Shown: positions 39 through 22,241 of the stretch, piece by piece
Numbering within the stretch: position 1 is the stretch's first letter
Layout: the number at the start of each line of letters is the position of its first letter
Source: Patescibacteria group bacterium
Lineage (GTDB): Bacteria > Patescibacteriota > Patescibacteriia > Patescibacteriales > JAQTRU01
DNA: 37,500 nucleotides
Direction: 5' to 3'
Assembly (NCBI GenBank): GCA_041648955.1
Contig: JBAZOD010000002.1
Location: 1-37,500 of the forward strand
Translations under genes and position numbers: made by a program
The notes under the pieces: generated by a model
The model's input: the letters and a program-made list of their open reading frames with translations, nothing else
What the model was told of the DNA's origin: nothing
Databases searched by the model: none

Positions 39-112
39 GGAGCGGTAGCTCAGTTGGTTAGAGCGCTGCCCTGTCACGGCAGAGGTCGCGGGTCCGAGTC
101 CCGTCCGCTCCG
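39..112 (+). tRNA. tRNA-Asp (anticodon GTC)
   Basis: Cloverleaf read by hand. Acceptor GGAGCGG/CCGCTCC, D-arm GCTC/GAGC, anticodon stem CTGCC/GGCAG with loop CTGTCAC (GTC), T-stem GCGGG/CCCGT, discriminator G. Near-identical in layout to classical bacterial tRNA-Asp. CCA is not encoded (G-CAG follows). Confidence 0.9.
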
Positions 113-1747
113 CAGTAATAATAAATTAGGGGTAGCAACCCCTTTTTTATTTTTATCTTCGCCGAAATCTTGGGTTATAGTGATAGCTTTTTGTTGATTA
201 TAAGAAATTAGAAATTTATATGGGCTTTCTTCTGTATTTATTAATGTTTTCGCTCTTAATATAGGGTTATAGTAAACAAATTTAAAATAGTCTCTTTTCT
301 CTTCTGGTGAAGCATTTTTAAATTTATCTACTAAATTACGATTAAAGTCTACATAGTTTGAACACAAATTAAACCAACCTTGATTTTGACTTTCTCTATC
401 TCCAATTTTTTCTCTAATTAAAGCTTGGTCTTGTAAAATTTTCCTCTTAAAATCTATAAATTGGTCATCAGATAATAATTCTCCATTTTTATTTTCAGGG
501 GATATTTTAAAATTTAATAAATTATCTAGTCTCGTCCCACATCTGTTTAGTTCTAATTGTTGCTGTTTCATTATTGAATCTCTATTTTTTATTTCTTGTT
601 CGTTTAATTTATTAATTTCTTCCATAGCTAAATTATAAAAGTCCTCATCAATTGAAACCTTTTTTAACCCCTCAATGATTTGCTCCTCAAGCACATCCTC
701 TCTTATATATAATTGTCCCGTGCATTTCATACAACGATAATAAGGATGCCCCTTTGAAGTTAATGCTGATATATTTCCCCCACAAACCCCGCATTTCAGT
801 AAATTTGAATATGTATAAAATCTCTTTTTTCCTATAGGTCGGCTGTGTTCTTTAAGAACTTGCTGAACGCGATAAAATAGTTCCTTGTTCACAATCGGGT
901 CGTGCCTAGTTTCGTCTGGAAGTTCTTCTGGCTCTATTATTACACCTTTCCAAAAAATCGCTCCACGATAAAATGGATTAGTTAATATTCTATAAATAGT
1001 TGCTTTACTTAATTTTTTTTTGCTCCTACCTCCTGTTAATCCCATTTCATAAGTTGTATCTCGTAATTTTTCAAGGGCGTATCTGCCAGTGGCAAAAAGT
1101 TTATATAATTCTAATACTATTGGAGCTAACAAAGGGTCAACCTCAATCCTTTTCAGTTTATTTTTTGAACATAAGATTTTTTGTTTTTCAAAAGTGTATT
1201 GTTTTCCCGATATCTTTTCGTTTTTATCAATATTTAAATAACCAACACAGGCATACCCAGGATATTCTCCTTTTCTAAGTTTTGATTTTATATCTCTTTT
1301 TACATATTCTGAAGTATCGTCAGAACTTTTCTTTTGCATAGCAAATTGAAGAGCGAGCAAAAATTCTTGCCCAGAATTTTTTCTATAAACTTCATTTGGA
1401 GTTCTAATTTCTTTAATAACACCATCTTTTAACATATCAATAATGATTCCTCCGTCTGTCATATTTCTCGCCAACCTTGATAAATGATAAACAAATATGG
1501 CGTTTGCTTTGCCTTTACGGATTAAATTTATCATTTTATTAAATTCTGGTCTTCCTGGCGAATAAGCACTCCTTGCTTCTTCAAACTCAGCGACAATATT
1601 TAAACCATTTGCTTTAGCATATTTAGAATTTTCAACTTTTTGTGCGGGCAAACTTAAAATTTGCCTATCCTCGGCTTCTGATGATTTTCTCCTATATTCT
1701 ACAAAAAACAATATTTCTGGTGTTAAATTTTCTTCTAATGTTAGCAT
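74..1747 (-). CDS. Large serine recombinase / integrase (resolvase catalytic domain, recombinase domain, zinc ribbon, coiled coil)
   Basis: N-terminal YRRKSSE...LSLPAQ serine-recombinase signature and VYHLSRLARN. Central recombinase-domain region. CGVCGG...YYRCMKC zinc ribbon followed by a long charged helical segment. The last roughly 20 codons run antisense across the tRNA gene. Confidence 0.9.
   Translation of the reverse strand: MLTLEENLTPEILFFVEYRRKSSEAEDRQILSLPAQKVENSKYAKANGLNIVAEFEEARSAYSPGRPEFNKMINLIRKGKANAIFVYHLSRLARNMTDGGIIIDMLKDGVIKEIRTPNEVYRKNSGQEFLLALQFAMQKKSSDDTSEYVKRDIKSKLRKGEYPGYACVGYLNIDKNEKISGKQYTFEKQKILCSKNKLKRIEVDPLLAPIVLELYKLFATGRYALEKLRDTTYEMGLTGGRSKKKLSKATIYRILTNPFYRGAIFWKGVIIEPEELPDETRHDPIVNKELFYRVQQVLKEHSRPIGKKRFYTYSNLLKCGVCGGNISALTSKGHPYYRCMKCTGQLYIREDVLEEQIIEGLKKVSIDEDFYNLAMEEINKLNEQEIKNRDSIMKQQQLELNRCGTRLDNLLNFKISPENKNGELLSDDQFIDFKRKILQDQALIREKIGDRESQNQGWFNLCSNYVDFNRNLVDKFKNASPEEKRDYFKFVYYNPILRAKTLINTEESPYKFLISYNQQKAITITQDFGEDKNKKGVATPNLLLLRSGRDSDPRPLP
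107..116 (+). repeat. Proximal copy of island direct repeat (attL-like core) inside the tRNA-Asp acceptor 3' strand
   Basis: cgctccgcag is identical to 15714-15723. Confidence 0.6.
128..148 (+). terminator. Short hairpin plus T-run downstream of tRNA-Asp
   Basis: aggggt-agca-acccct followed by tttttt. It lies inside the 3' tail of the antisense recombinase ORF. Confidence 0.4.
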
Positions 1748-2821: not shown

Positions 2822-3010
2822 ATGCCAAATTCTAACAAAATACTATTAAATATAAACGAAGTAGCCGAACTTTTAGGTGTTCACCCTGAAACTTTAAGGC
2901 GTTGGGACAATGAGGGCAAACTAAAAGCTATTAGGATTGGTGATTTTGGACATAGAAAATACAGGAAAGAGGATATTGATAATTTACTTAATAATCACAA
3001 AAATGATTAA
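2822..3010 (+). CDS. Excisionase/MerR-type helix-turn-helix DNA-binding protein (62 aa)
   Basis: LNINEVAELLGVHPETLRRWDNEGKLKAIRIG...RKYRKEDIDNLL matches the excisionase-family HTH pattern. Its stop overlaps the downstream methylase start (ATGATTAA at 3003-3010). Confidence 0.8.
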   Translation: MPNSNKILLNINEVAELLGVHPETLRRWDNEGKLKAIRIGDFGHRKYRKEDIDNLLNNHKND

Positions 3011-3695
3011 TAACTGGATTAATACAATTCAAAATATTGATTGTTTAGATGGTTTTAAAAAATTATCTGATAATTCCGTTGATTTAATTTTAACTGACCC
3101 GCCTTATGGAATTAGCAGAGAGTTAAATTGTAAAAATCAGCGTTTAGGCACAACGGCTAAGTTAAATTTTCATTTTGGCGAATGGGATAAATTTAATAAA
3201 CTATGGTTTGATATTGCCGTTAAAAAAACAAAGGGCTGGATTATTAGTTTTTGTGCAAAAAAAGATATAGGTTTTTATTGGGATATATTGGAAAAAAATG
3301 ATTTTAAAGCTATTGATGTAATTGTTTGGCAAAAACCAGACCCAATTCCTTTAAACGGAAAAACTAAATTGCTTAATGCTTGGGAAGCCGCGATTATCGG
3401 CAAGAAAGCGGGAGCTCATTTCACCGGCAAATGCCGGCATAATATTTTTAAATATCAGGCACCAAAGGGCAAAAGTAGAATTCACCCGACCCAAAAACCA
3501 GTTGGTTTAATTGAGGATATAATATTACTAACTACTAAAAAGGGCGATATTGTTTTAGACCCATTTATGGGAAGCGGCACAACTGCCGTGGCTTGCATTA
3601 AAACAGGAAGAAATTATATAGGTTTTGAAATTGATAAAAAATATCACCGAGAATCTTTAAAAAGAATAAAGGAAACTCCTACGCCCTTGCTATAG
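3003..3695 (+). CDS. DNA methyltransferase, beta-class N6-adenine/N4-cytosine (M1)
   Basis: Motif IV LILTDPPYG is N-terminal, HPTQKP is present, and motif I FMGSGTT is C-terminal. That motif order indicates the beta group. The start is chosen at the ATG overlapping the HTH stop; the ORF track extends upstream to 2937. Confidence 0.9.
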   Translation: MINNWINTIQNIDCLDGFKKLSDNSVDLILTDPPYGISRELNCKNQRLGTTAKLNFHFGEWDKFNKLWFDIAVKKTKGWIISFCAKKDIGFYWDILEKNDFKAIDVIVWQKPDPIPLNGKTKLLNAWEAAIIGKKAGAHFTGKCRHNIFKYQAPKGKSRIHPTQKPVGLIEDIILLTTKKGDIVLDPFMGSGTTAVACIKTGRNYIGFEIDKKYHRESLKRIKETPTPLL

Positions 3696-4670
3696 TTTAA
3701 AAATGAGCTTAGCTTTTATCTTTTTTAAGTCGCCGTTAGATAGACTTGCTTGTAGACGCCTTAAAATTTTACCTTGTTCTTTAAATCGTCTTTTCTTGGC
3801 ATTTAGTTTTTGCTTTAACCGCTTGATAGTTTTAAGCGAGTCGGCTTCGTAGATTATTTTAATTTCAAAAGCGTCTTTGTCTACCACGGCTAAAATGATT
3901 TTATGGTCGCCTTTATATTTATTTAAAACATTTTTGGAAATATCCTGAAAATTCCAGTTATAATTTTTAGCCACTTTATACTCGTAATATCTGCCCTGTT
4001 TATCAACTGCGTCGTGGCCTAATTGTTCTGATAACACTCTATGCCCCAAAATTAATGAAACCAGTATTTCCCAAAATTTATTACTTGTCAGAACTTCATT
4101 GGTGCCAGTTATTTTTTCTATCTGTTTAGCTATTTTATATATTTCATCAAGCCATTTATAATATTTACCCTGTTTGCAGTTGCAATTATTATATGATTTC
4201 TGAATACCTAAATTTTTCTCAATTTGTTTAGAGCTGACATTAATCATTTTTCTGGCATTTTTAATTGGTTTGGTTTTTTCCGTTAGATAATCAGAAATAA
4301 TTTTTCCTGGCACATCATAATACCAATCAAATTTTGGAAAATTACCCGAATCGTCAATGTGAGCAAAAATTACCGCTTCTGCGTCATTTAACTTTTTTAT
4401 GGTAGTATCAGTATAGTCATTAAATGTCCAAGTGTGGTTAGAACTGTTTTCCTTATAATGTTTGTATTCATATTCGCCACCTTGTTGATTTTTAGCGTCC
4501 CTAGAGCCAGAATGCCCTGGAATTAAAAGGTGATTTAAATCATTGGCAATGACGATTTCAAATATTTTGGAATTTGATATGATATCAGTAACCCCGAATT
4601 TATTAAAAAAGTCGTCCTGAATTGCTTTAAGACGCTTTATAAAAATAGTTATATCTTCTTGTTTAGCCAT
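3690..4670 (-). CDS. Candidate type II restriction endonuclease with internally duplicated PD-(D/E)XK-like module
   Basis: Sandwiched between two methyltransferase genes. Two homologous halves align: SKIFEIVIANDLNHLLIPGHSGSRDAKNQQGGEYEYK...WTFND...VIFAHID and NKFWEILVSLILGHRVLSEQLGHDAVDKQGRYYEYK...WNFQD...IILAVVD. Each half carries a D...E-Y-K pattern. Confidence 0.6.
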   Translation of the reverse strand: MAKQEDITIFIKRLKAIQDDFFNKFGVTDIISNSKIFEIVIANDLNHLLIPGHSGSRDAKNQQGGEYEYKHYKENSSNHTWTFNDYTDTTIKKLNDAEAVIFAHIDDSGNFPKFDWYYDVPGKIISDYLTEKTKPIKNARKMINVSSKQIEKNLGIQKSYNNCNCKQGKYYKWLDEIYKIAKQIEKITGTNEVLTSNKFWEILVSLILGHRVLSEQLGHDAVDKQGRYYEYKVAKNYNWNFQDISKNVLNKYKGDHKIILAVVDKDAFEIKIIYEADSLKTIKRLKQKLNAKKRRFKEQGKILRRLQASLSNGDLKKIKAKLIFKL

Positions 4671-4681
4671 ATTTATAATAT

Positions 4682-5605
4682 ATGCCAGATAAATCTATTA
4701 TCACCATATCAAACAAATTTAATAAAATCAACGATTATAACTTAATTTGCGAGGATACTTTTAAGGTTTTACCGCAAATTCCTGATAATTTTGCCGACCA
4801 TTGCATTACCGACCCGCCCTATAATATTTCTGGTTATGATTTTAAAAAGGAAATTGGCTGGTTAAAATCAAACAAATATTGGAGCGAGCAGAAAAACTTT
4901 AAAAAAATTGAAGAGGACTGGGATAAATTTTCTAATGGCGATTATGAAAAATTTACTAAATTATGGTTAGATGAAATTTTCAGAATAGTTAAGCCAAACG
5001 GAAATATTATTATTTTTGGCAGTTACCATAATATTTATAAAATTGGTTATCTTTTGCAGAAAGACCATAAGAAAATTATTAATTCCGTAGTCTGGTTTAA
5101 ACGTAATGCTTTTCCAAATATAACCCAACGGATGCTTTGCGAAAGCACAGAACATATTATCTGGGCGGTTAATGAAACGGACGATAAGGCTAAAAATTGG
5201 ACTTTCAACTACGAAGAATTAAAAAAATATAATACGGTTAAAGAGTGTGGCAAATGCAAAAAAATTATTGATGCCGAAAATAAATATTGTCCTAATTGTG
5301 GAAATAATATTTTTAAAACCAAAAAATTACAATTAAGGAACTTATGGGATATTCCGTCAACGCCAGCAGGGGAAAGAAAACACGGAAAACATCCATCGCA
5401 AAAACCTATCCAAGTATTAGAAAGATTAATTGTTGGCGGAACGAAGAAAGATGAAATAATAATTGACCCCTTTGCTGGAAGTGGCACGACTGCTTTAGTA
5501 ACAAAAAATTTAGGTAGAAAATTTGTTGCCATTGATAACGACAAAAATTACTGTAAAATAATTTTAAATAGATTAAAAGACGGTTATCAGGAAAATATGA
5601 TTTAA
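4682..5605 (+). CDS. DNA methyltransferase, beta-class N6-adenine/N4-cytosine, with zinc-ribbon insertion (M2)
   Basis: CITDPPYNI (motif IV), HPSQKP, FAGSGTT (motif I). There is an inserted CGKC...CPNCG four-cysteine segment. The start codon is only 11 bp from the divergent endonuclease start. Confidence 0.9.
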   Translation: MPDKSIITISNKFNKINDYNLICEDTFKVLPQIPDNFADHCITDPPYNISGYDFKKEIGWLKSNKYWSEQKNFKKIEEDWDKFSNGDYEKFTKLWLDEIFRIVKPNGNIIIFGSYHNIYKIGYLLQKDHKKIINSVVWFKRNAFPNITQRMLCESTEHIIWAVNETDDKAKNWTFNYEELKKYNTVKECGKCKKIIDAENKYCPNCGNNIFKTKKLQLRNLWDIPSTPAGERKHGKHPSQKPIQVLERLIVGGTKKDEIIIDPFAGSGTTALVTKNLGRKFVAIDNDKNYCKIILNRLKDGYQENMI

Positions 5606-5664: not shown

Positions 5665-5812
5665 AGTATTTAACAATTTATGGTCTAAACCTTAAATTTA
5701 TTTAAGGCATGGCCAAAAGTCCTAGACAGCAGAGATGGTCTTCTGACCAGTTTTAAGCTGTCTAGGCGTATATCCGAAAGGATATATTTAACTGCGTTGG
5801 AAGACCTTTTTT
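5665..5812 (+). ncRNA. Candidate structured leader or small RNA upstream of 5851..6204
   Basis: Hairpins: ccttaaa/tttaagg (5690-5707). A perfect 10-bp stem cctagacagc/gctgtctagg (5721-5730 / 5757-5766) encloses tggtc/gacca. atatcc-GAAA-ggatat (5768-5787). ggtcttc (5737-5743) can alternatively pair with gaagacc (5800-5806), which is followed by T6. Confidence 0.3.
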
Positions 5813-8388: not shown

Positions 8389-8727
8389 ATGCGGCAAAAT
8401 TTTATGCAATTAATGACCAAAGAGTTGGAAAAACAATTTAAAAAGGTCGGCAGTCAGGAAGATGTTAAAGACCCGATTGTGGTTTGTAAATTTTTTAATC
8501 CCTCGGGTATTGGCTATTGGTTCGCTACCGAGTATAACCCTGAAGATAAAATATTCTTCGGGTATGTTTCTTTCTTCGGCGACCATAATGATGAGTGGGG
8601 TTCGTTTAGTTTAAAAGAATTGGAGGAATATTGCGGCCCGTTCGGATTGGGCATAGAAAGAGATTTACATTTCCATTCTGAACCTATTAGTAAAGTTATG
8701 CCTAAGGCAATTTTAAATATAATTTAA
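8389..8727 (+). CDS. DUF2958-like protein
   Basis: KELEKQFKKVGSQE...DPIVVCKFFNPSGIGYWFATEY...FGYVS...EWGSFSLKELEE...GLGIERDLHF matches my recollection of the DUF2958 family common on conjugative or integrative elements. The true start may be an internal Met. Confidence 0.7.
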   Translation: MRQNFMQLMTKELEKQFKKVGSQEDVKDPIVVCKFFNPSGIGYWFATEYNPEDKIFFGYVSFFGDHNDEWGSFSLKELEEYCGPFGLGIERDLHFHSEPISKVMPKAILNII

Positions 8728-8750
8728 CAAAAAAGACATACTATTTTGTT
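8726..8750 (+). repeat. Quasi-palindromic site, copy 1 (aacaaaa-N11-ttttgtt)
   Basis: The 15-nt caaaaaagacatact (8728-8742) is identical to 15609-15623. It lies just upstream of the small serine recombinase ATG at 8764. Confidence 0.5.
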
Positions 8751-9534: not shown

Positions 9535-9600
9535 GGTTTTAGGGAAAGACGATAGATATTGACTATAACTAAAAAAAGGCAAAAAATTGCCCTTTTTATG
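9531..9600 (+). repeat. Site S2: recombination-site-like repeat with core gactataact (9561-9570)
   Basis: Its left arm resembles the S1 left arm (29/40). The core plus right arm (aaaaaaaggcaaaaaattgcccttttt) match S3 at 33/40. The right arm forms a small ggcaa/ttgcc hairpin between A and T runs. Confidence 0.5.
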
Positions 9601-11402: not shown

Positions 11403-11451
11403 TTCAATATTGGCTATAACTAAAAAAGGGCAAGTAATTGCCTTTTTTGTA
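11403..11451 (+). repeat. Site S3: recombination-site-like repeat with core ggctataact (11412-11421)
   Basis: Preceded by ttcaatatt. The right arm aaaaaagggcaagtaattgcctttttt is homologous to the S2 right arm. Confidence 0.5.
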
Positions 11452-11467
11452 AGTTTATGGACAAAGA

Positions 11468-14400
11468 ATGTTCAAAGTATTAATATTTAAGGGTAATTCA
11501 AAATATATGTCTTATAAAAAGGAGCAAATTAGTCCAACCACAAAAATAAAAGTTTATATTAATTGTGGCGGTAAATGCGGTTTTCCTGAATGCAAGGAAC
11601 ATTTAGTTGAAGAAAATAGTATTATAGGTCAGATAGCCCATATTAAAGCCCAACAACCAGGAGGGCCAAGATTTGATATTACTTTAACCAAAGATAAAAT
11701 AGATGCCCCAGAAAATTTAATTGCTTTTTGTCAAAAACACCATAAAATAATTGATGACCATCCAGATAAATATTCAGTAGAAGATATTTCAAATTGGAAA
11801 AAAGATATTGAGGAATGGGCTAAAAAATCACCAGAAAAAACCGAACTTGGAAAAAAATTAATATTGATAATATTATCTGACTTAGAAAAGGAGTTAGACA
11901 GGGGCAACGGAGAATATGTGCTAAAAACCATACAATCGCTTAAAATTATTACGGAAACGATTATTAAAGATGATATTATTGGCAGTGAAATTGGGATATT
12001 AGAAGCAAAATCAAAACAAGCCCTGGAAGATGTTGAGGGAGCTATAAAAATTTACGAAAGCCTTTCAAAACTTTATCCTAAAAATGTTAAACCTATCTTG
12101 TATTTGGCTGAAATTTATTTAAATAAATGCGACTATGAAAAAAATAAAGAGCTCTTAGAACAGGCAGAGAAAATAGATAATAGCCACTGGCTTTTTGTGA
12201 TTGAACAGCTTATTAGAGAATTTCGTTTAAACAAAAAAATTGATACATCAAAAATAAATGAAAAGGATTTTCCAGAAGATAAGAAGCAAAAGGCAACCTA
12301 CTATCGTATCTATTCCCTGTTTTATCAAAACGAAAAAAACGATATTAAGGCAGATGAGTTTATAGAAAAATCAATTAAACTATATCCCTACTCATTTTCT
12401 GCTTTTAATTTGAAAATATCTCATAATCTACAGAGGTTAATTGAAAAAGGGTTTCCTCTTAATCATATTGAAAAAGCCGAGGACATATTAAGTCAGATTA
12501 AAGAGATTGAAAAAGAAAAAAATAATTGGGACAGATTACATATCAGAGGTAGAGCTACCCTTGAATTTAGAAAATTTTATATTTATATAATACAACAAGA
12601 TGGTAATAAAATTATTTCAACAGGCAAGGGGTTAATTGACCTCATACTTAAGTGCTCATTTGATTTAGATATAGATAATTTTTTATCCTTTCTCCTTGCA
12701 AATTATCGTCCAGAAGAAAAAGACTTTGAAAAAATTATTTCATATTTATCAAATAAAAAAATCTCTTACGATTTAGCTAAAATACTCGCTTTTCAATTTT
12801 GTGAAAAAGGCAAGTTATTAACTGATGGCAAGAATTTTTTATCAGCCAAAAATGAAAAGATTAAAAATTTAATTTTGAATATAGAAGAAAACAAAGAAAG
12901 CGACGTGATTAATTTTCTTAAAGAAGATTTGCAGTTAATGATAACTTTTGCAAATTGCTTAAAAACCAACTCAGGTTTAAGAAAAAAAATAATAGACAGT
13001 GTGCCAGATGATGAGAATATTCAAAAAGATAGAATCTATTTATTGTATTATTCTGACATAAAAGCATATGATGACGCCTTTAGGATTATCCAAAATATTG
13101 ATTTTGAAAATGCAAGTTATCTTGACTGTAAAATATCTTTAAAAGCAGTCCGTGAGAAACAAGCGTGGGAAATGGAGGCAAAAATTTTAGAAAGACTATT
13201 CCAATTAGAAAAAGATGAAAGAATAAAATTATCGTTTAAATTAGACCATTTTACAGCTTGTATGAAGATGGAGGATTATTTGGAAGTTATTAATATAGGT
13301 AAATATTTATTGGATAACCCTAAGACATTTGAGCTAATGGATAAAAAAAATCAAGAATTATTATTAGGACAAACAATCACAGCTTATCTACAAAGAAGTG
13401 AAGAAAAAGAGGCTTTAGGAATGCTTCAAAAATATCCAAATATTATTGAGAGCTTTGAGTTTATTATTTCGGTAGAGGCTGAAGTTTACTTAAAAAATGG
13501 AGATTATAAAAAAGCATTATCATCTTTATGTAGAGGAGTAAAAAAAATTGGGAAACCAACAAAGGAACAATATGGATATTTATTTTTGTCTTTTACTCAA
13601 TTAAGTAATTCTGGTTTTGCTAAAATTGAACCACTTGAAAAAGTTGTAAGTAATTCTTTTATAAAATTCCAAAATCAAGAGCAATGGTATTATATCGGAG
13701 ATGGGGACGAGCTAGACGCCACTAAAATTATTTCAGCAAATAATAAATACAATTTATTAATTAACAAAAAAATAAATGATAATATAGATTTTCCTGAGGA
13801 TAAATATCAAACCAACAAAGAACAGAGAATAGTTGAAAATATTTTGAGTCTAGAGGCTTATATAAATTGGAAATCCCACGATAGCTTTTTTAGTTTATCA
13901 AAACAAGGAAGATGGGACGCAGGAATAGCGATTGAAGTGCCGAATAAAGATGATAGTATAGATGTTAATAATGTAATTAATTTTATTAAAGACCAACAAG
14001 AGAGAGGCAGAAATTTTTTTGATGATTATTGTTCAAATAATTATCCTTTCGCATTTTTAGCTTTAAGCGAGGGGGGAGTAACCAATGCCATCGGCAGAAT
14101 TACAAATGAAAACAAGGGATTTATAAGATTTTCTGATGGTTCAATCCAAGATATTGACCGTCAAAGAAAAGTAGCTGAAAAAATACTTAACGGTTCAGAT
14201 ATTTTTTTAGATGGGACAACGGCTCTTTTCTTGGCTGAAACAGGATTGTTAAAAAAAATAGTGCCTTTCATCCCTAATTTAAAAGTTCCTCAATCAGTTA
14301 TTTCTTTCTTATTTAAAGTATTGGAAAAATTTAATATTTCACCTGGGCAGGTTGGTCATATGCGATGTGCTAATGACCAACTAGTATTTGATAAGGTTGA

Positions 14401-15151
14401 TATTGAAAAAAATAACAAAATAAAAGAAAATTTTAAACAGAGCATAGAAATTTTAGAGAAAGATAAAAAAAGTATTTTTTCTATCTCTCAAGCAAATAAA
14501 TCTGAGCACTTTTCAGAAAGTAATATTGTCCCCGAATTGGTGGATGCCTGTATTTTAGCACAAAAGAATGACGGTATTGTATTAACTGAGGATTTTTTAT
14601 ATTTGCAAGCCAATAATTTGCAAACAAATAAAGGTATACCAGAATATTGTTCACTGTTTTCTTTAATTAAAGAGTTGCTTAAAAAAGATAAAATATCTTT
14701 TGAGGACTATCTGAATGCCTTTTATTATTTGTCATCGTATAGGTGTAGGTTTCTAGATTTAAATACTGGTATTTTAATTAGGGCAATTTTTGGAGAAGAT
14801 AATAAATTGATTTTTGAATTTAAAAATATTAGAAAGTTAAATTTAGCTTTAACTTTATCCGAAGAATATGGAGTAAAAACAGAGGCCGCTATTCAGGTTA
14901 TGGGGGGATTTTTAGTAAGAATTATTATAGCCAATATTGTTTCTGTAGAAAATGCAAATAAAGTTTACAGAGAGGTGTTGCCAACTTTTTTCTTAAATCG
15001 TGATAAAAAAATTATCGGAAGATTATTGTTTGAATATTGTTCAAACTCTTTAGAGAAAATACTTAAAGAAAAATACATTTATTCCTTGCCGATTTTGATG
15101 AGTGAAAAATTAGCGGCTTTAGAAAAACAAATAAACGCACAACTGTTATAG
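11468..15151 (+). CDS. 1227-aa multidomain protein: N-terminal HNH nuclease motif, long TPR-like helical repeat region, C-terminal PIN-like domain
   Basis: HNH: CGGKCGFPEC...QIAHIKAQQPGGPRFD...NLIAFCQKHHKIIDD (about nt 11564-11760). TPR-like: AIKIYESLSKLYPKNVKPILYLAEIYLNKCDYEKNKELLEQA and VYLKNGDYKKALSSL. PIN-like: DIFLDGTTALFLAE (from nt 14198) ... ELVDACILAQKNDGIVLTEDFLY. An alternative start is ATG 11507. Confidence 0.8.
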   Translation: MFKVLIFKGNSKYMSYKKEQISPTTKIKVYINCGGKCGFPECKEHLVEENSIIGQIAHIKAQQPGGPRFDITLTKDKIDAPENLIAFCQKHHKIIDDHPDKYSVEDISNWKKDIEEWAKKSPEKTELGKKLILIILSDLEKELDRGNGEYVLKTIQSLKIITETIIKDDIIGSEIGILEAKSKQALEDVEGAIKIYESLSKLYPKNVKPILYLAEIYLNKCDYEKNKELLEQAEKIDNSHWLFVIEQLIREFRLNKKIDTSKINEKDFPEDKKQKATYYRIYSLFYQNEKNDIKADEFIEKSIKLYPYSFSAFNLKISHNLQRLIEKGFPLNHIEKAEDILSQIKEIEKEKNNWDRLHIRGRATLEFRKFYIYIIQQDGNKIISTGKGLIDLILKCSFDLDIDNFLSFLLANYRPEEKDFEKIISYLSNKKISYDLAKILAFQFCEKGKLLTDGKNFLSAKNEKIKNLILNIEENKESDVINFLKEDLQLMITFANCLKTNSGLRKKIIDSVPDDENIQKDRIYLLYYSDIKAYDDAFRIIQNIDFENASYLDCKISLKAVREKQAWEMEAKILERLFQLEKDERIKLSFKLDHFTACMKMEDYLEVINIGKYLLDNPKTFELMDKKNQELLLGQTITAYLQRSEEKEALGMLQKYPNIIESFEFIISVEAEVYLKNGDYKKALSSLCRGVKKIGKPTKEQYGYLFLSFTQLSNSGFAKIEPLEKVVSNSFIKFQNQEQWYYIGDGDELDATKIISANNKYNLLINKKINDNIDFPEDKYQTNKEQRIVENILSLEAYINWKSHDSFFSLSKQGRWDAGIAIEVPNKDDSIDVNNVINFIKDQQERGRNFFDDYCSNNYPFAFLALSEGGVTNAIGRITNENKGFIRFSDGSIQDIDRQRKVAEKILNGSDIFLDGTTALFLAETGLLKKIVPFIPNLKVPQSVISFLFKVLEKFNISPGQVGHMRCANDQLVFDKVDIEKNNKIKENFKQSIEILEKDKKSIFSISQANKSEHFSESNIVPELVDACILAQKNDGIVLTEDFLYLQANNLQTNKGIPEYCSLFSLIKELLKKDKISFEDYLNAFYYLSSYRCRFLDLNTGILIRAIFGEDNKLIFEFKNIRKLNLALTLSEEYGVKTEAAIQVMGGFLVRIIIANIVSVENANKVYREVLPTFFLNRDKKIIGRLLFEYCSNSLEKILKEKYIYSLPILMSEKLAALEKQINAQLL

Positions 15152-15500: not shown

Positions 15501-15536
15501 AAAGTTAAGTAAAGGTAATATATAGGCTTTTATTTA

Positions 15537-15592
15537 GGGGGTAAAATTAATGGCTTTTGCTACTTGCCGGCAACGCCATTAATTTTACCCCC
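15537..15592. repeat. Perfect 18-bp inverted repeat with 20-nt spacer
   Basis: gggggtaaaattaatggc (15537-15554) and gccattaattttaccccc (15575-15592). The spacer contains the palindrome ttgccggcaa. It is 37 bp upstream of the minus-strand ORF start at 15500. Confidence 0.8.
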
Positions 15593-15607
15593 TTTAGTAT
15601 TAGCCTA

Positions 15608-15630
15608 TCAAAAAAGACATACTTTTTTGA
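15608..15630 (+). repeat. Quasi-palindromic site, copy 2 (tcaaaaaag-acata-cttttttga)
   Basis: Shares 15 identical nt (15609-15623) and 21/23 overall with 8728-8750, in the same orientation. Confidence 0.5.
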
Positions 15631-15713: not shown

Positions 15714-15723
15714 CGCTCCGCAG
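15714..15723 (+). repeat. Distal copy of island direct repeat (attR-like core)
   Basis: cgctccgcag is identical to the tRNA-Asp 3' end at 107-116. It is flanked on the island side by tatta, whose reverse complement taata flanks the proximal copy on the island side. Confidence 0.6.
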
Positions 15724-15730
15724 AAAAAAG

Positions 15731-15757
15731 AAAAACCCACAATCTGTGGGTTTTTTT
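15731..15757 (+). terminator. Rho-independent terminator, probably the original tRNA-Asp terminator
   Basis: aaaaacccac-aatct-gtgggttttttt. Confidence 0.6.
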
Positions 15758-15869
15758 GCCTCTTGATCTTTTTCCCGTATTATGTTAATTTAAGAATACT
15801 ATTAATTTAATGACCTTTTCTTGGATATGGCCTTGCGCCCATTTCTCGGATAAGGACAAGAAAAAAGCT

Positions 15870-16262
15870 ATGTTAGCAAAAAAAGACAAACAAAAACTCA
15901 TTGCGAAATTCAGAACCCATGACAGCGACACAGGTTCTCCGCAAGTGCAAATCGCCATTTTGACTGAAGAAATCAAACAGTTGACTGAGCATTTAAAAAA
16001 GCACAAACATGATCATTCTTCTCGACGCGGACTTTTAAAAAAAGTCGGGGAAAGAAGAAAATTATTAAAGTACCTGCAAAAAGAAGATGAAAAATCTTTT
16101 AAGGATTTAACCGAAAGATTGAAATTAAAAATAGCCAAGAGAATGCAGGAAGAAGAGGATGAAAGACTGAGGATAGAAGAAGAACTAAACAAAAAGGATG
16201 AGATAAAGGCAGAGGAAGAAGAAGAGGTAGAAGAAGTTGCTGACGACAAAGACGAAGAATAA
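15870..16262 (+). CDS. rpsO: 30S ribosomal protein S15 with about 42-aa acidic C-terminal extension
   Basis: DTGSPQVQIAILTEEI..L..HLKKHKHDHSSRRGLLKKVGERRKLLKYL aligns to canonical S15. Start taken at MLAKKDK (15870). The tail is ...EEEDERLRIEEELNKKDEIKAEEEEEVEEVADDKDEE. Confidence 0.9.
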   Translation: MLAKKDKQKLIAKFRTHDSDTGSPQVQIAILTEEIKQLTEHLKKHKHDHSSRRGLLKKVGERRKLLKYLQKEDEKSFKDLTERLKLKIAKRMQEEEDERLRIEEELNKKDEIKAEEEEEVEEVADDKDEE

Positions 16263-20924: not shown

Positions 20925-22184
20925 ATGAAAATTCTAGTCATTGTTTTGGGATTGTTTTTTACCATAAACCATTCTTTCGCGGAGGAAATCATGACTCCAA
21001 AATTACTGCAAGCGGCGCAAAACATGCAGAGTTATGTCGCCAATATCAGGGAGTATCTGCATCAACATCCGGGTATTCGGTTTTCAAAAGAAGAAACGGC
21101 GGCTCTCGAGTTTATCCAGGCGGAAGTCAAAGCCAAAATAAATTCCTCCCCTTACCGCGTAACCATACGCATGATGTCGGGAGGACTCGTCGTTGATGTC
21201 GAAGCCGATCCGAAATTCAACTGGATTCTGTTCAGGGCGGATATCGATGCTCTGGGCGTGGCCGAGGAAACCGGTTTGCCATATTCTTCGCAGACCCTGG
21301 GTGTCTCGCATGCCTGCGGTCATGACGCGAACAGCGCCATGCTCCTGGGCGCGCTCCGCCGCATTATTGAAGGCAAGCTCCCGATCAAACACAACATCCG
21401 CTTCGTGTTCCAGAGAGCCGAGGAAAACCCGATCACCGAATCGGGCGGAGCCATGCTCGTCCGCGAAGGCGTGCTTGACGGCGTATCCGCCGTCTATGCA
21501 ACGCACATCTTCACGGAGAACCAGGCGCCCAGCGGCCAGTGGCAGACTCGGCGCGGCCCGTTCATGAGTAATTCCGGACGCGTGAAAATCGAAATCACGT
21601 GCGAAGGCGGTCACGTCGCGACCCCGAACGAGGGGTCAAACGCGACGGAGATTATGGCCGACATCATCGTCGGGATGCGGAGTTTCGCTATAACGCATCT
21701 CGGGCCGTTGGAACCGACCAGCATTGTGCCCGCGACCGCTTCCGCTGGCGAGCCCAATGCGTCAAACGTCCGCCCGGGAAGCGCGGTGCTGTGGTTTTCT
21801 TTTCGCCATTTGCTTTCCCCCGAAAAGGCGGGAAAGATCAAGGCGGAAATGAAAACCCGGATTGAAGCAATCGTGTCGGCTTATCCCGACGCGGAAGTGA
21901 AAATCACTTTCTACGACGGCCACCCGGCTCTTCGCAACGATCCGGCCGAAACGCAGAAGGTCATAGATCTTCTCGCCGCGGCGGGTGAAAAAGACGTGGT
22001 GGAAATCGACCCGCTCTTCGGCGGAGAAGATTTCGCCCACTATCTGAACAAGGTGCCGGGAACGATGGTCTTCCTCGGAGCCTGGCAGAAGGGATCTGGT
22101 ACTCATCACCAGAAAAATTTCAACCCCGATCCTTCCGTGTTCTGGAAAGGCGTGTTTTACTGGTTGCTTCTTGCAACCAACTGA
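20925..22184 (+). CDS. M20D-family amidohydrolase (N-acyl-amino-acid/hippurate hydrolase-like), GC-rich
   Basis: LHQHPGIRFSKEET, HACGHD, GGEDFAHY. Alternative start ATG 20991 is preceded by GGAGG (20981-20985). The upstream 22 codons (MKILVIVLGLFFTINHSFAEEI) look like a signal peptide. Confidence 0.85.
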   Translation: MKILVIVLGLFFTINHSFAEEIMTPKLLQAAQNMQSYVANIREYLHQHPGIRFSKEETAALEFIQAEVKAKINSSPYRVTIRMMSGGLVVDVEADPKFNWILFRADIDALGVAEETGLPYSSQTLGVSHACGHDANSAMLLGALRRIIEGKLPIKHNIRFVFQRAEENPITESGGAMLVREGVLDGVSAVYATHIFTENQAPSGQWQTRRGPFMSNSGRVKIEITCEGGHVATPNEGSNATEIMADIIVGMRSFAITHLGPLEPTSIVPATASAGEPNASNVRPGSAVLWFSFRHLLSPEKAGKIKAEMKTRIEAIVSAYPDAEVKITFYDGHPALRNDPAETQKVIDLLAAAGEKDVVEIDPLFGGEDFAHYLNKVPGTMVFLGAWQKGSGTHHQKNFNPDPSVFWKGVFYWLLLATN

Positions 22185-22200
22185 TCCCTTTCCAAATAAA

Positions 22201-22241
22201 TAATTACCCCCGTCATGCAAATGATGGGGGTAATTTTTTTT
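22201..22241. terminator. Bidirectional terminator between convergent genes
   Basis: taattacccccgtcat-gcaa-atgatgggggtaatt followed by a T-run. A 14-bp stem with one G-U pair. Confidence 0.7.

Follow-up and report, generated by a model that had tools for sequence, protein, structure and literature searches.

What does a giant single gene do in a recombinase-bearing island of a Patescibacteria genome, and does it belong to a system that already has a name? The gene lies at 11468..15151 (+) in a 37,500-nucleotide stretch of a Patescibacteria group bacterium (assembly GCA_041648955.1, contig JBAZOD010000002.1, positions 1 to 37,500; hereafter, the window). An earlier interpretation made from the letters alone (hereafter, the sequence-only reading) proposed a stand-alone defence protein with an HNH nuclease, TPR-like repeats, and a PIN-like nuclease, of an architecture that it could not match to a named system. 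We find that the protein is an HNH-type member of the TPR-GreA/B-C-PIN (TGP) family, with HNH, TPR, GreA/B C-terminal-like (GreA/B-C), and PIN domains, because every architectural feature of that family is found in it.

The open reading frame (ORF) is single and uninterrupted. It encodes 1227 amino acids (aa) from ATG 11468, the end coordinate including the stop codon, and all peptide strings quoted in the sequence-only reading are located within it. The gene caller reports a product of 1214 aa starting at M14 (ATG 11507), and the aligned Met is the start in 93% of HNH-bearing homologs. For both reasons, ATG 11507 is probably the true start, giving a product of 1214 aa. We detected no Walker A motif in the protein, and scans against Pfam, PADLOC, and NCBIfam gave no match to an NTPase family, in agreement with the earlier remark that no ATPase motif is visible.

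The C-terminal PIN domain (14195..14647, +; residues ~910-1060) provides the link to a named architecture. It matches the TGP-specific Pfam family PF20698 at residues 914-1047 (37.8 bits against a cut-off of 27.8; 40.4 bits when the region is excised). The Pfam title of this family is “PIN domain associated with the TPR-GreAB-C-PIN system”. The match therefore indicates a named architecture, one that requires a GreA/B-C domain between the TPR and PIN regions. In a structure model of residues 700-1227, built from a 24-sequence family alignment (predicted local distance difference test score, pLDDT, 89.3), PIN domains rank first among Foldseek matches to the PDB (3ix7, VapC, SMG6, and EST1A; probability 0.8-0.99). 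Four PIN residues (D915, S943, D1026, and D1042) are 95-99% conserved across 114 relatives. Membership of the VapC-type toxin-antitoxin systems was ruled out, as this PIN is embedded in a 1227-aa protein with no conserved small neighbor.

The required GreA/B-C domain is predicted at about residues 724-795 (13637..13852, +), as an FKBP-related fold and a putative RNA polymerase–docking module in which W740 and G744 are conserved. Sequence searches give few signs of it. Pfam returned no GreA/B-C match for either the whole protein or the excised region, and a family profile searched against PDB sequences found no Gre match. When family members were scanned against Pfam one by one, GreA_GreB was the top family, but in only 2 of 18 members (best E = 0.007). 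Predicted structure is more informative. The model of residues 700-1227 also matches GreA (9a7t_B, probability 0.91) and the Gre-like protein Rnk. An AlphaFold2 (AF2) model of residues 715-815 alone (pLDDT 88.5) has Gre-family C-terminal domains as all of its top 14 Foldseek matches in the PDB: Rnk 3bmb, GreA/GreB 2pn0, Gfh1 2etn/3aoi/2f23, GreB 2p4v, and GreA 1grj. For 12 of the 14, the probability is 0.85-1.00; likewise, in 12 of 14 the root mean square deviation is 2.6-4.3 Å over 73-82 columns. FKBP and trigger-factor folds rank after these, at low probability. We place a GreA/B-C domain here because the top 14 matches of the modeled region are exclusively from the Gre family.

At the N terminus, we find an HNH (His-Me finger) nuclease of the Cap5/SPARHA clade (11516..11842, +; residues ~17-125), which bears out the HNH signature noted previously. 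The PADLOC models CBASS SAVED-HNH, SduA, and PDC-M68A match residues 12-152 (E down to 1e-27). Among PDB sequences, 9om4 matches best (E = 3e-17), and Cap5 structures, 7rwm among them (E = 9e-8), come next. The 9om4 structure is the HNH effector of the short-Argonaute system SPARHA (PMC12738770). Across an alignment of 28 HNH-bearing relatives, C37, C42, H58, R68, N83, C88, and H92 are invariant; the catalytic residues (H58, N83, and H92) and zinc ligands (C37, C42, and C88) all align to 9om4 and 7rwm. Loss of catalytic residues had been named as an outcome contrary to the sequence-only reading. Instead, they are invariant in the HNH alignment and 95-99% conserved in the PIN alignment, and because of this conservation both nucleases look active. 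The earlier assignment of a C-terminal PIN likewise stands, given the PF20698 score and the Foldseek matches.

Two systems suggested by the HNH matches were rejected. Membership of CBASS was ruled out, as the PADLOC matches comprise the HNH only (residues 12-152), with neither a SAVED domain nor a neighboring cyclase. Membership of Shedu (SduA) was also ruled out: only positions 11-110 of the 326-position model, its HNH-like N-terminal part, match (residues 15-112), and Pfam finds no DUF4263, the PD-(D/E)xK nuclease domain of that system.

Between the HNH and GreA/B-C domains lies a helical repeat region (11915..13612, +; residues ~150-715), in which TPRs are clear at ~180-320. Here, Pfam TPR_19 matches residues 187-237 above its cut-off (E = 1.9e-7), NCBIfam PrsT TPR matches residues 187-313 (E = 3.4e-10), and NCBIfam TPR families together span about 180-313. 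Residues ~320-715 have only weak TPR matches, and align with the TPR region of the TGP family. Thus, the helical TPR-like repeats proposed earlier are present, but extend over about 565 residues rather than about 800.

These domains, in this order, reproduce a published conflict system. TGPs were described as having a constant region of TPRs, GreA/B-C, and a form of PIN that had escaped earlier detection (Kaur, Iyer, Burroughs & Aravind 2021, eLife 10:e70394, PMC8195603). In that paper, TGPs carry 13 interchangeable N-terminal effectors, HNH and REase included; the genes are mostly stand-alone; and GreA/B-C is modeled as linking TGPs to RNA polymerase. This is not a new system, since the architecture, including its HNH variant, is already catalogued. 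The earlier statement that the architecture cannot be matched to a named system thus has to be withdrawn: it is TGP, a system with its own Pfam model (PF20698) and with HNH among its listed effectors. In PADLOC v2.0.0, no model covers the TPR-GreA/B-C-PIN core, and all matches are confined to the HNH.

The structure model also delimits two further helical segments. One is a linker between GreA/B-C and PIN (13853..14194, +; residues ~796-909). The other is a conserved, all-helical C-terminal extension of ~165 residues after the PIN (14648..15148, +; residues ~1061-1227), in which S1062, R1092, S1131, Y1134, and G1135 are >90% conserved across the family. This extension is modeled with high confidence, yet Foldseek finds no fold match for it in the PDB. 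The published TGP description, in the parts available to us, does not mention a helical extension following the PIN (PMC8195603).

Close relatives of this protein swap their effectors on a constant TPR-GreA/B-C-PIN core. Using the constant C-terminal half of the TGP protein as a query, a HMMER scan of 1.84 billion representative proteins recovered 195 clusters (E <= 0.001). Among 114 full-length representatives, the N terminus is LmuA-like in 73, HNH in 29, and of another kind in 12, the last appearing by eye to be SIR2-like, transmembrane, or Mrr/REase-like. The LmuA-like N terminus matches the PADLOC model for LmuA of Lamassu (E = 1.2e-9). That most relatives bear this LmuA-like nuclease instead of HNH shows the modularity of the effector position. 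The nucleases therefore do not rank equally as effectors: PIN is part of the constant core, and HNH is the module that can be swapped.

The distribution of the family is patchy across phyla. A relative from Parcubacteria has 72% identity (full length with HNH); family-wide identity is only ~35-45%. Other relatives come from Gracilibacteria, Peregrinibacteria, Acidobacteriota, Bacteroidota, Chloroflexi, Nitrospirae, Ignavibacteria, Thermodesulfobacteriota, and others, and a conjugative plasmid of Fluoribacter dumoffii carries one. No TGP match was found in a phage genome collection. The neighborhoods of the relatives differ from one another, with frequent defence or mobile genes: SoFic, HEPN with an rve integrase, DUF1156/DUF499, serine recombinases, SNase, and a PIF1 helicase. 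This patchy distribution and these neighbors differ from the picture of housekeeping homologs outside mobile contexts that the sequence-only reading had named as contrary to its proposal.

Across 28 related loci, none of the window's neighbors of the TGP gene recurs. DUF2726, the 106-aa ORF, the membrane protein, SNase, and the methyltransferases were accordingly all rejected as conserved partners. We also rejected a mobile cassette of a serine recombinase with TGP, an idea prompted by the Fluoribacter plasmid and the small recombinase in the window, as a recombinase is nearby in only 3 of ~26 independent loci.

Taken together, the four domains, their conserved active sites, effector swapping, the stand-alone gene, and the mobile and defence context lead us to consider it highly probable that this is a single-polypeptide anti-phage or anti–mobile element immune protein of the TGP class, with a constant core and a swappable N-terminal HNH DNase. 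The sequence-only reading had suggested a stand-alone, ATPase-less defence or abortive infection protein with a DNase-type and an RNase-type nuclease. This is consistent with our data and with the literature, except that the nucleases are not equivalent. It had also cast the TPR array as the sensor, which is incomplete: it overlooked GreA/B-C, the link to RNA polymerase in the published model (PMC8195603) and in mutagenesis of Bab/Agp.

Bab/Agp, from Escherichia coli ECOR25, is the sole TGP that has been tested experimentally, and confers abortive infection resistance to phage T5 (bioRxiv 10.1101/2024.11.07.622273). Point mutations in GreA/B-C, designed after GreA variants with impaired binding to RNA polymerase, abolish defence against T5. 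An active-site mutation in PIN also abolishes defence, but lowers protein level or stability (bioRxiv 10.1101/2024.11.07.622273).

The GreA/B-C domain would dock at the secondary channel of RNA polymerase, on the beta-prime rim helices, and report a polymerase hijacked by phage, as PMC8195603 suggests and the genetics of Bab/Agp support. PIN might then cut transcripts at or near the hijacked polymerase, as the literature would suggest. The most likely switch is trigger-induced oligomerization through the TPR scaffold. We favor it because the HNH domains of Cap5 and SPARHA are active only as tetramers assembled by oligomerization, as dimers of dimers (PMC12738770). By analogy, HNH domains brought together as a Cap5/SPARHA-like tetramer could degrade DNA non-specifically, resulting in abortive infection.

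Several points weigh against this interpretation. Most of the 565-residue helical region has no significant TPR match. Support for GreA/B-C from sequence is weak (2 of 18 members, E = 0.007, and no PDB profile match), so that its assignment depends on predicted structure, where the Foldseek E-values of the Gre matches are modest (0.03-0.3) despite their high probabilities. Experimental work on TGPs is confined to Bab/Agp, which is not an HNH-TGP; there, RNA polymerase binding was deduced only from mutants mimicking those of GreA, and the PIN mutant was destabilized (bioRxiv 10.1101/2024.11.07.622273).

The same domains could also follow another logic, although we consider this unlikely. Here, the TPR region would sense a phage protein directly, in the manner of ATPase-less Avs/STAND analogs; GreA/B-C would tether or scaffold the protein, or position HNH on transcribed foreign DNA, so that cutting is coupled to transcription; and PIN would be secondary or regulatory. 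TPR arrays are common ligand sensors, and this HNH clade is often fused to TPR-bearing STAND sensors (PMC12738770). Moreover, the constant TPR region is described as rapidly evolving in PMC8195603, a trait that would suit a surface in contact with phage proteins, and family identity is only ~35-45%. However, GreA/B-C and PIN are strictly kept while the N terminus is swapped, and are therefore part of the sensing or first-response core rather than optional additions. Furthermore, point mutants in GreA/B-C abolish defence by Bab/Agp (bioRxiv 10.1101/2024.11.07.622273).

For the HNH variant, a further scenario seems quite improbable to us. Beyond sensing a hijacked polymerase, GreA/B-C might place the HNH DNase on the transcribed template, leading to transcription-coupled cutting of foreign DNA at sites where a polymerase modified by phage is at work, while PIN would remove the RNA being made. 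If true, transcription-coupled restriction would represent direct, non-suicidal immunity in a Patescibacteria host with a reduced genome.

Two remaining rivals are poorly supported. There is very little chance that the gene is a selfish addiction or stabilization module of the integrative island, with a toxin-like nuclease that kills cells that lose the element. The gene does sit inside a recombinase-bearing island, PIN domains are classic toxins of toxin-antitoxin systems, with VapC among the Foldseek matches, and the plasmid relative lies two genes downstream of a GNAT/DUF1778 toxin-antitoxin pair, with a recombinase gene between. Nonetheless, no conserved small neighbor offers an antitoxin candidate, the protein has ~1200 aa with sensor-type domains, and a TGP relative gives phage resistance experimentally (bioRxiv 10.1101/2024.11.07.622273). 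That the protein is a housekeeping transcription or RNA quality-control factor, Gre-like with nuclease domains, is barely credible despite its predicted Gre-family C-terminal fold and its place a short way upstream of rpsO, NYN, and pnp, which belong to RNA metabolism, given that only 195 representative clusters occur among 1.84 billion proteins, patchily in unrelated phyla; that guanine-cytosine (GC) content is 0.286 in the gene and 0.305 in the island against 0.378 in the flank; that the N terminus is swapped among nuclease and (by eye) SIR2-like and transmembrane effectors; that the Gre N-terminal coiled coil with its catalytic acidic tip is absent; and that the rpsO/pnp adjacency occurs at no other locus.

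The TGP gene is carried by a low-GC island of ~15.6 kb at a tRNA-Asp gene (39-113). In order, the island comprises the tRNA-Asp, a large serine recombinase, a restriction-modification (R-M) module, SNase, DUF2958, a small serine recombinase, three minus-strand genes, the TGP gene, and a 106-aa ORF, followed by the housekeeping rpsO, a NYN-domain gene, and pnp. The recombinase ORF (74..1747, -) overlaps the 3′ half of the tRNA with its last ~13 codons. The R-M module (2937-5605) has two N4/N6 DNA methyltransferases (Pfam E = 3e-41 and 2e-43) flanking a minus-strand endonuclease, for which the match to PvuII is under the Pfam cut-off (E = 2.3e-4). The second methyltransferase holds a zinc-ribbon insert. 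The island context described previously, with R-M genes, DUF2726, and two serine recombinases, is thereby confirmed.

An RNA of the LOOT family (Rfam RF03000) lies within the island at 5682-5800 (+), with the second methyltransferase gene on one side and a 135-aa ORF on the other. It scores 62 bits against a gathering score of 46.4 over the full-length model; a literature search turned up no description of LOOT RNA. The island cargo also includes the DUF2958 gene (8389-8727), whose protein is 66% identical to one near a TGP homolog in a Syntrophobacteraceae metagenome-assembled genome (locus L014, 16259-16570). Such likeness is unusually high for hosts so distant and, from the sequences, suggests shared mobile-element cargo.

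The recombination-site-like repeats that were proposed to flank the TGP gene are only partly as described. A 42-nucleotide (nt) direct repeat (9556-9597 / 11407-11448; 88% identity, E = 4.6e-8), with a terminator-like hairpin in each copy, is solid; however, it exactly brackets the three minus-strand genes (a 268-aa membrane protein, a 125-aa ORF, and DUF2726) and not the TGP gene. This suggests an insertion of the minus-strand block that parted the small serine recombinase from the TGP gene; without it, the two would be direct neighbors, as they are on the Fluoribacter plasmid. A 24-nt repeat (8725-8748 / 15606-15629; 22 of 24 identical) does bracket 8.7-15.6 kb, from the small serine recombinase, with whose start codon the first copy overlaps, through the TGP gene. 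It is not significant in self-BLAST, however, and we do not count it as evidence. An 88-nt imperfect palindrome (15522-15608; 75% self-complementary) lies 3′ of the 106-aa ORF, with a copy of the 24-nt repeat directly after it.

At the other end of the island, no long direct repeat of the tRNA-Asp 3′ end that could serve as attR was found. There is a 10-nt copy of the tRNA 3′ end (CGCTCCGCAG; 15714-15723), a match that is not significant (E = 5.4), at the rise in GC content before rpsO, followed by a strong terminator hairpin (15714-15757). The copy and the hairpin at this GC boundary fit an attR remnant of a ~15.6-kb element integrated into tRNA-Asp. Beyond the boundary, the S15 protein predicted from rpsO (15810-16262) ends in a strongly acidic tail of ~45 residues, rich in Glu and Asp, and may also be extended at its N terminus. 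A NYN-domain (LabA-like) RNase is the product of the gene that separates rpsO from pnp. Further downstream, there is a sharp local GC peak at 21001-22000 (0.57 against ~0.38 around it), with several overlapping ORFs on both strands (20925-22220) and no Rfam match.

TGPs are predicted to be immune sensors that guard RNA polymerase, and have been little studied: a single preprint addresses a different variant. The compact, single-gene HNH-TGP described here, with both active sites conserved, offers a convenient construct for the study of RNA polymerase binding, the trigger, and the coordination of PIN with the DNase. Its occurrence in a Patescibacteria genome extends what little is recorded of defence systems from this group, without revealing a new kind of system.

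Each part of the protein has counterparts in known systems. From its predicted structure, the GreA/B-C domain would share its fold with the C-terminal globular domain of GreA, GreB, Gfh1, and Rnk, which binds the beta-prime rim helices of RNA polymerase. In contrast to these proteins, it has no N-terminal coiled coil reaching into the secondary channel, is only 14-20% identical in sequence, and sits inside a 1200-aa multidomain protein. The N-terminal ~110 residues are homologous to the HNH of Cap5 (CBASS SAVED-HNH; PDB 7rwm and 7rwk) and of SPARHA HNH-APAZ (9om4), and keep the catalytic His/Asn/His and zinc-binding Cys residues. The sensor platform differs: SAVED, responding to cyclic nucleotides, in Cap5; a short Argonaute in SPARHA; and TPR-GreA/B-C-PIN here. 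Tetramerization of the HNH is established for Cap5 and SPARHA, and for the TGP protein is suggested by analogy. With Lamassu, the similarity lies in the clade, where an LmuA-like nuclease occupies the position of HNH in most relatives; this protein has neither the LmuA-like domain nor the SMC-like partners LmuB and LmuC.

Among TGPs, Agp has a TPR-GreA/B-C-PIN core like that of this protein, as compared by description rather than by alignment, and its abortive defence needs an intact GreA/B-C. Agp (1094 aa) has the amyloid motif BASS11 at its N terminus and passes its signal to Bab, a separate executioner that targets the membrane, whereas here the HNH is fused and there is no partner gene. 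Relative to the TGPs of Kaur et al., the protein has no architectural difference: the core runs in the same order from TPR through GreA/B-C to PIN, the N terminus is variable, and the gene stands alone. The archetypal TGP is the EAD10 version, while the small clade of 195 representative clusters to which this copy belongs has mostly LmuA-like and HNH effectors, and this copy itself comes from an AT-rich, probably Patescibacteria/Parcubacteria-like genome.

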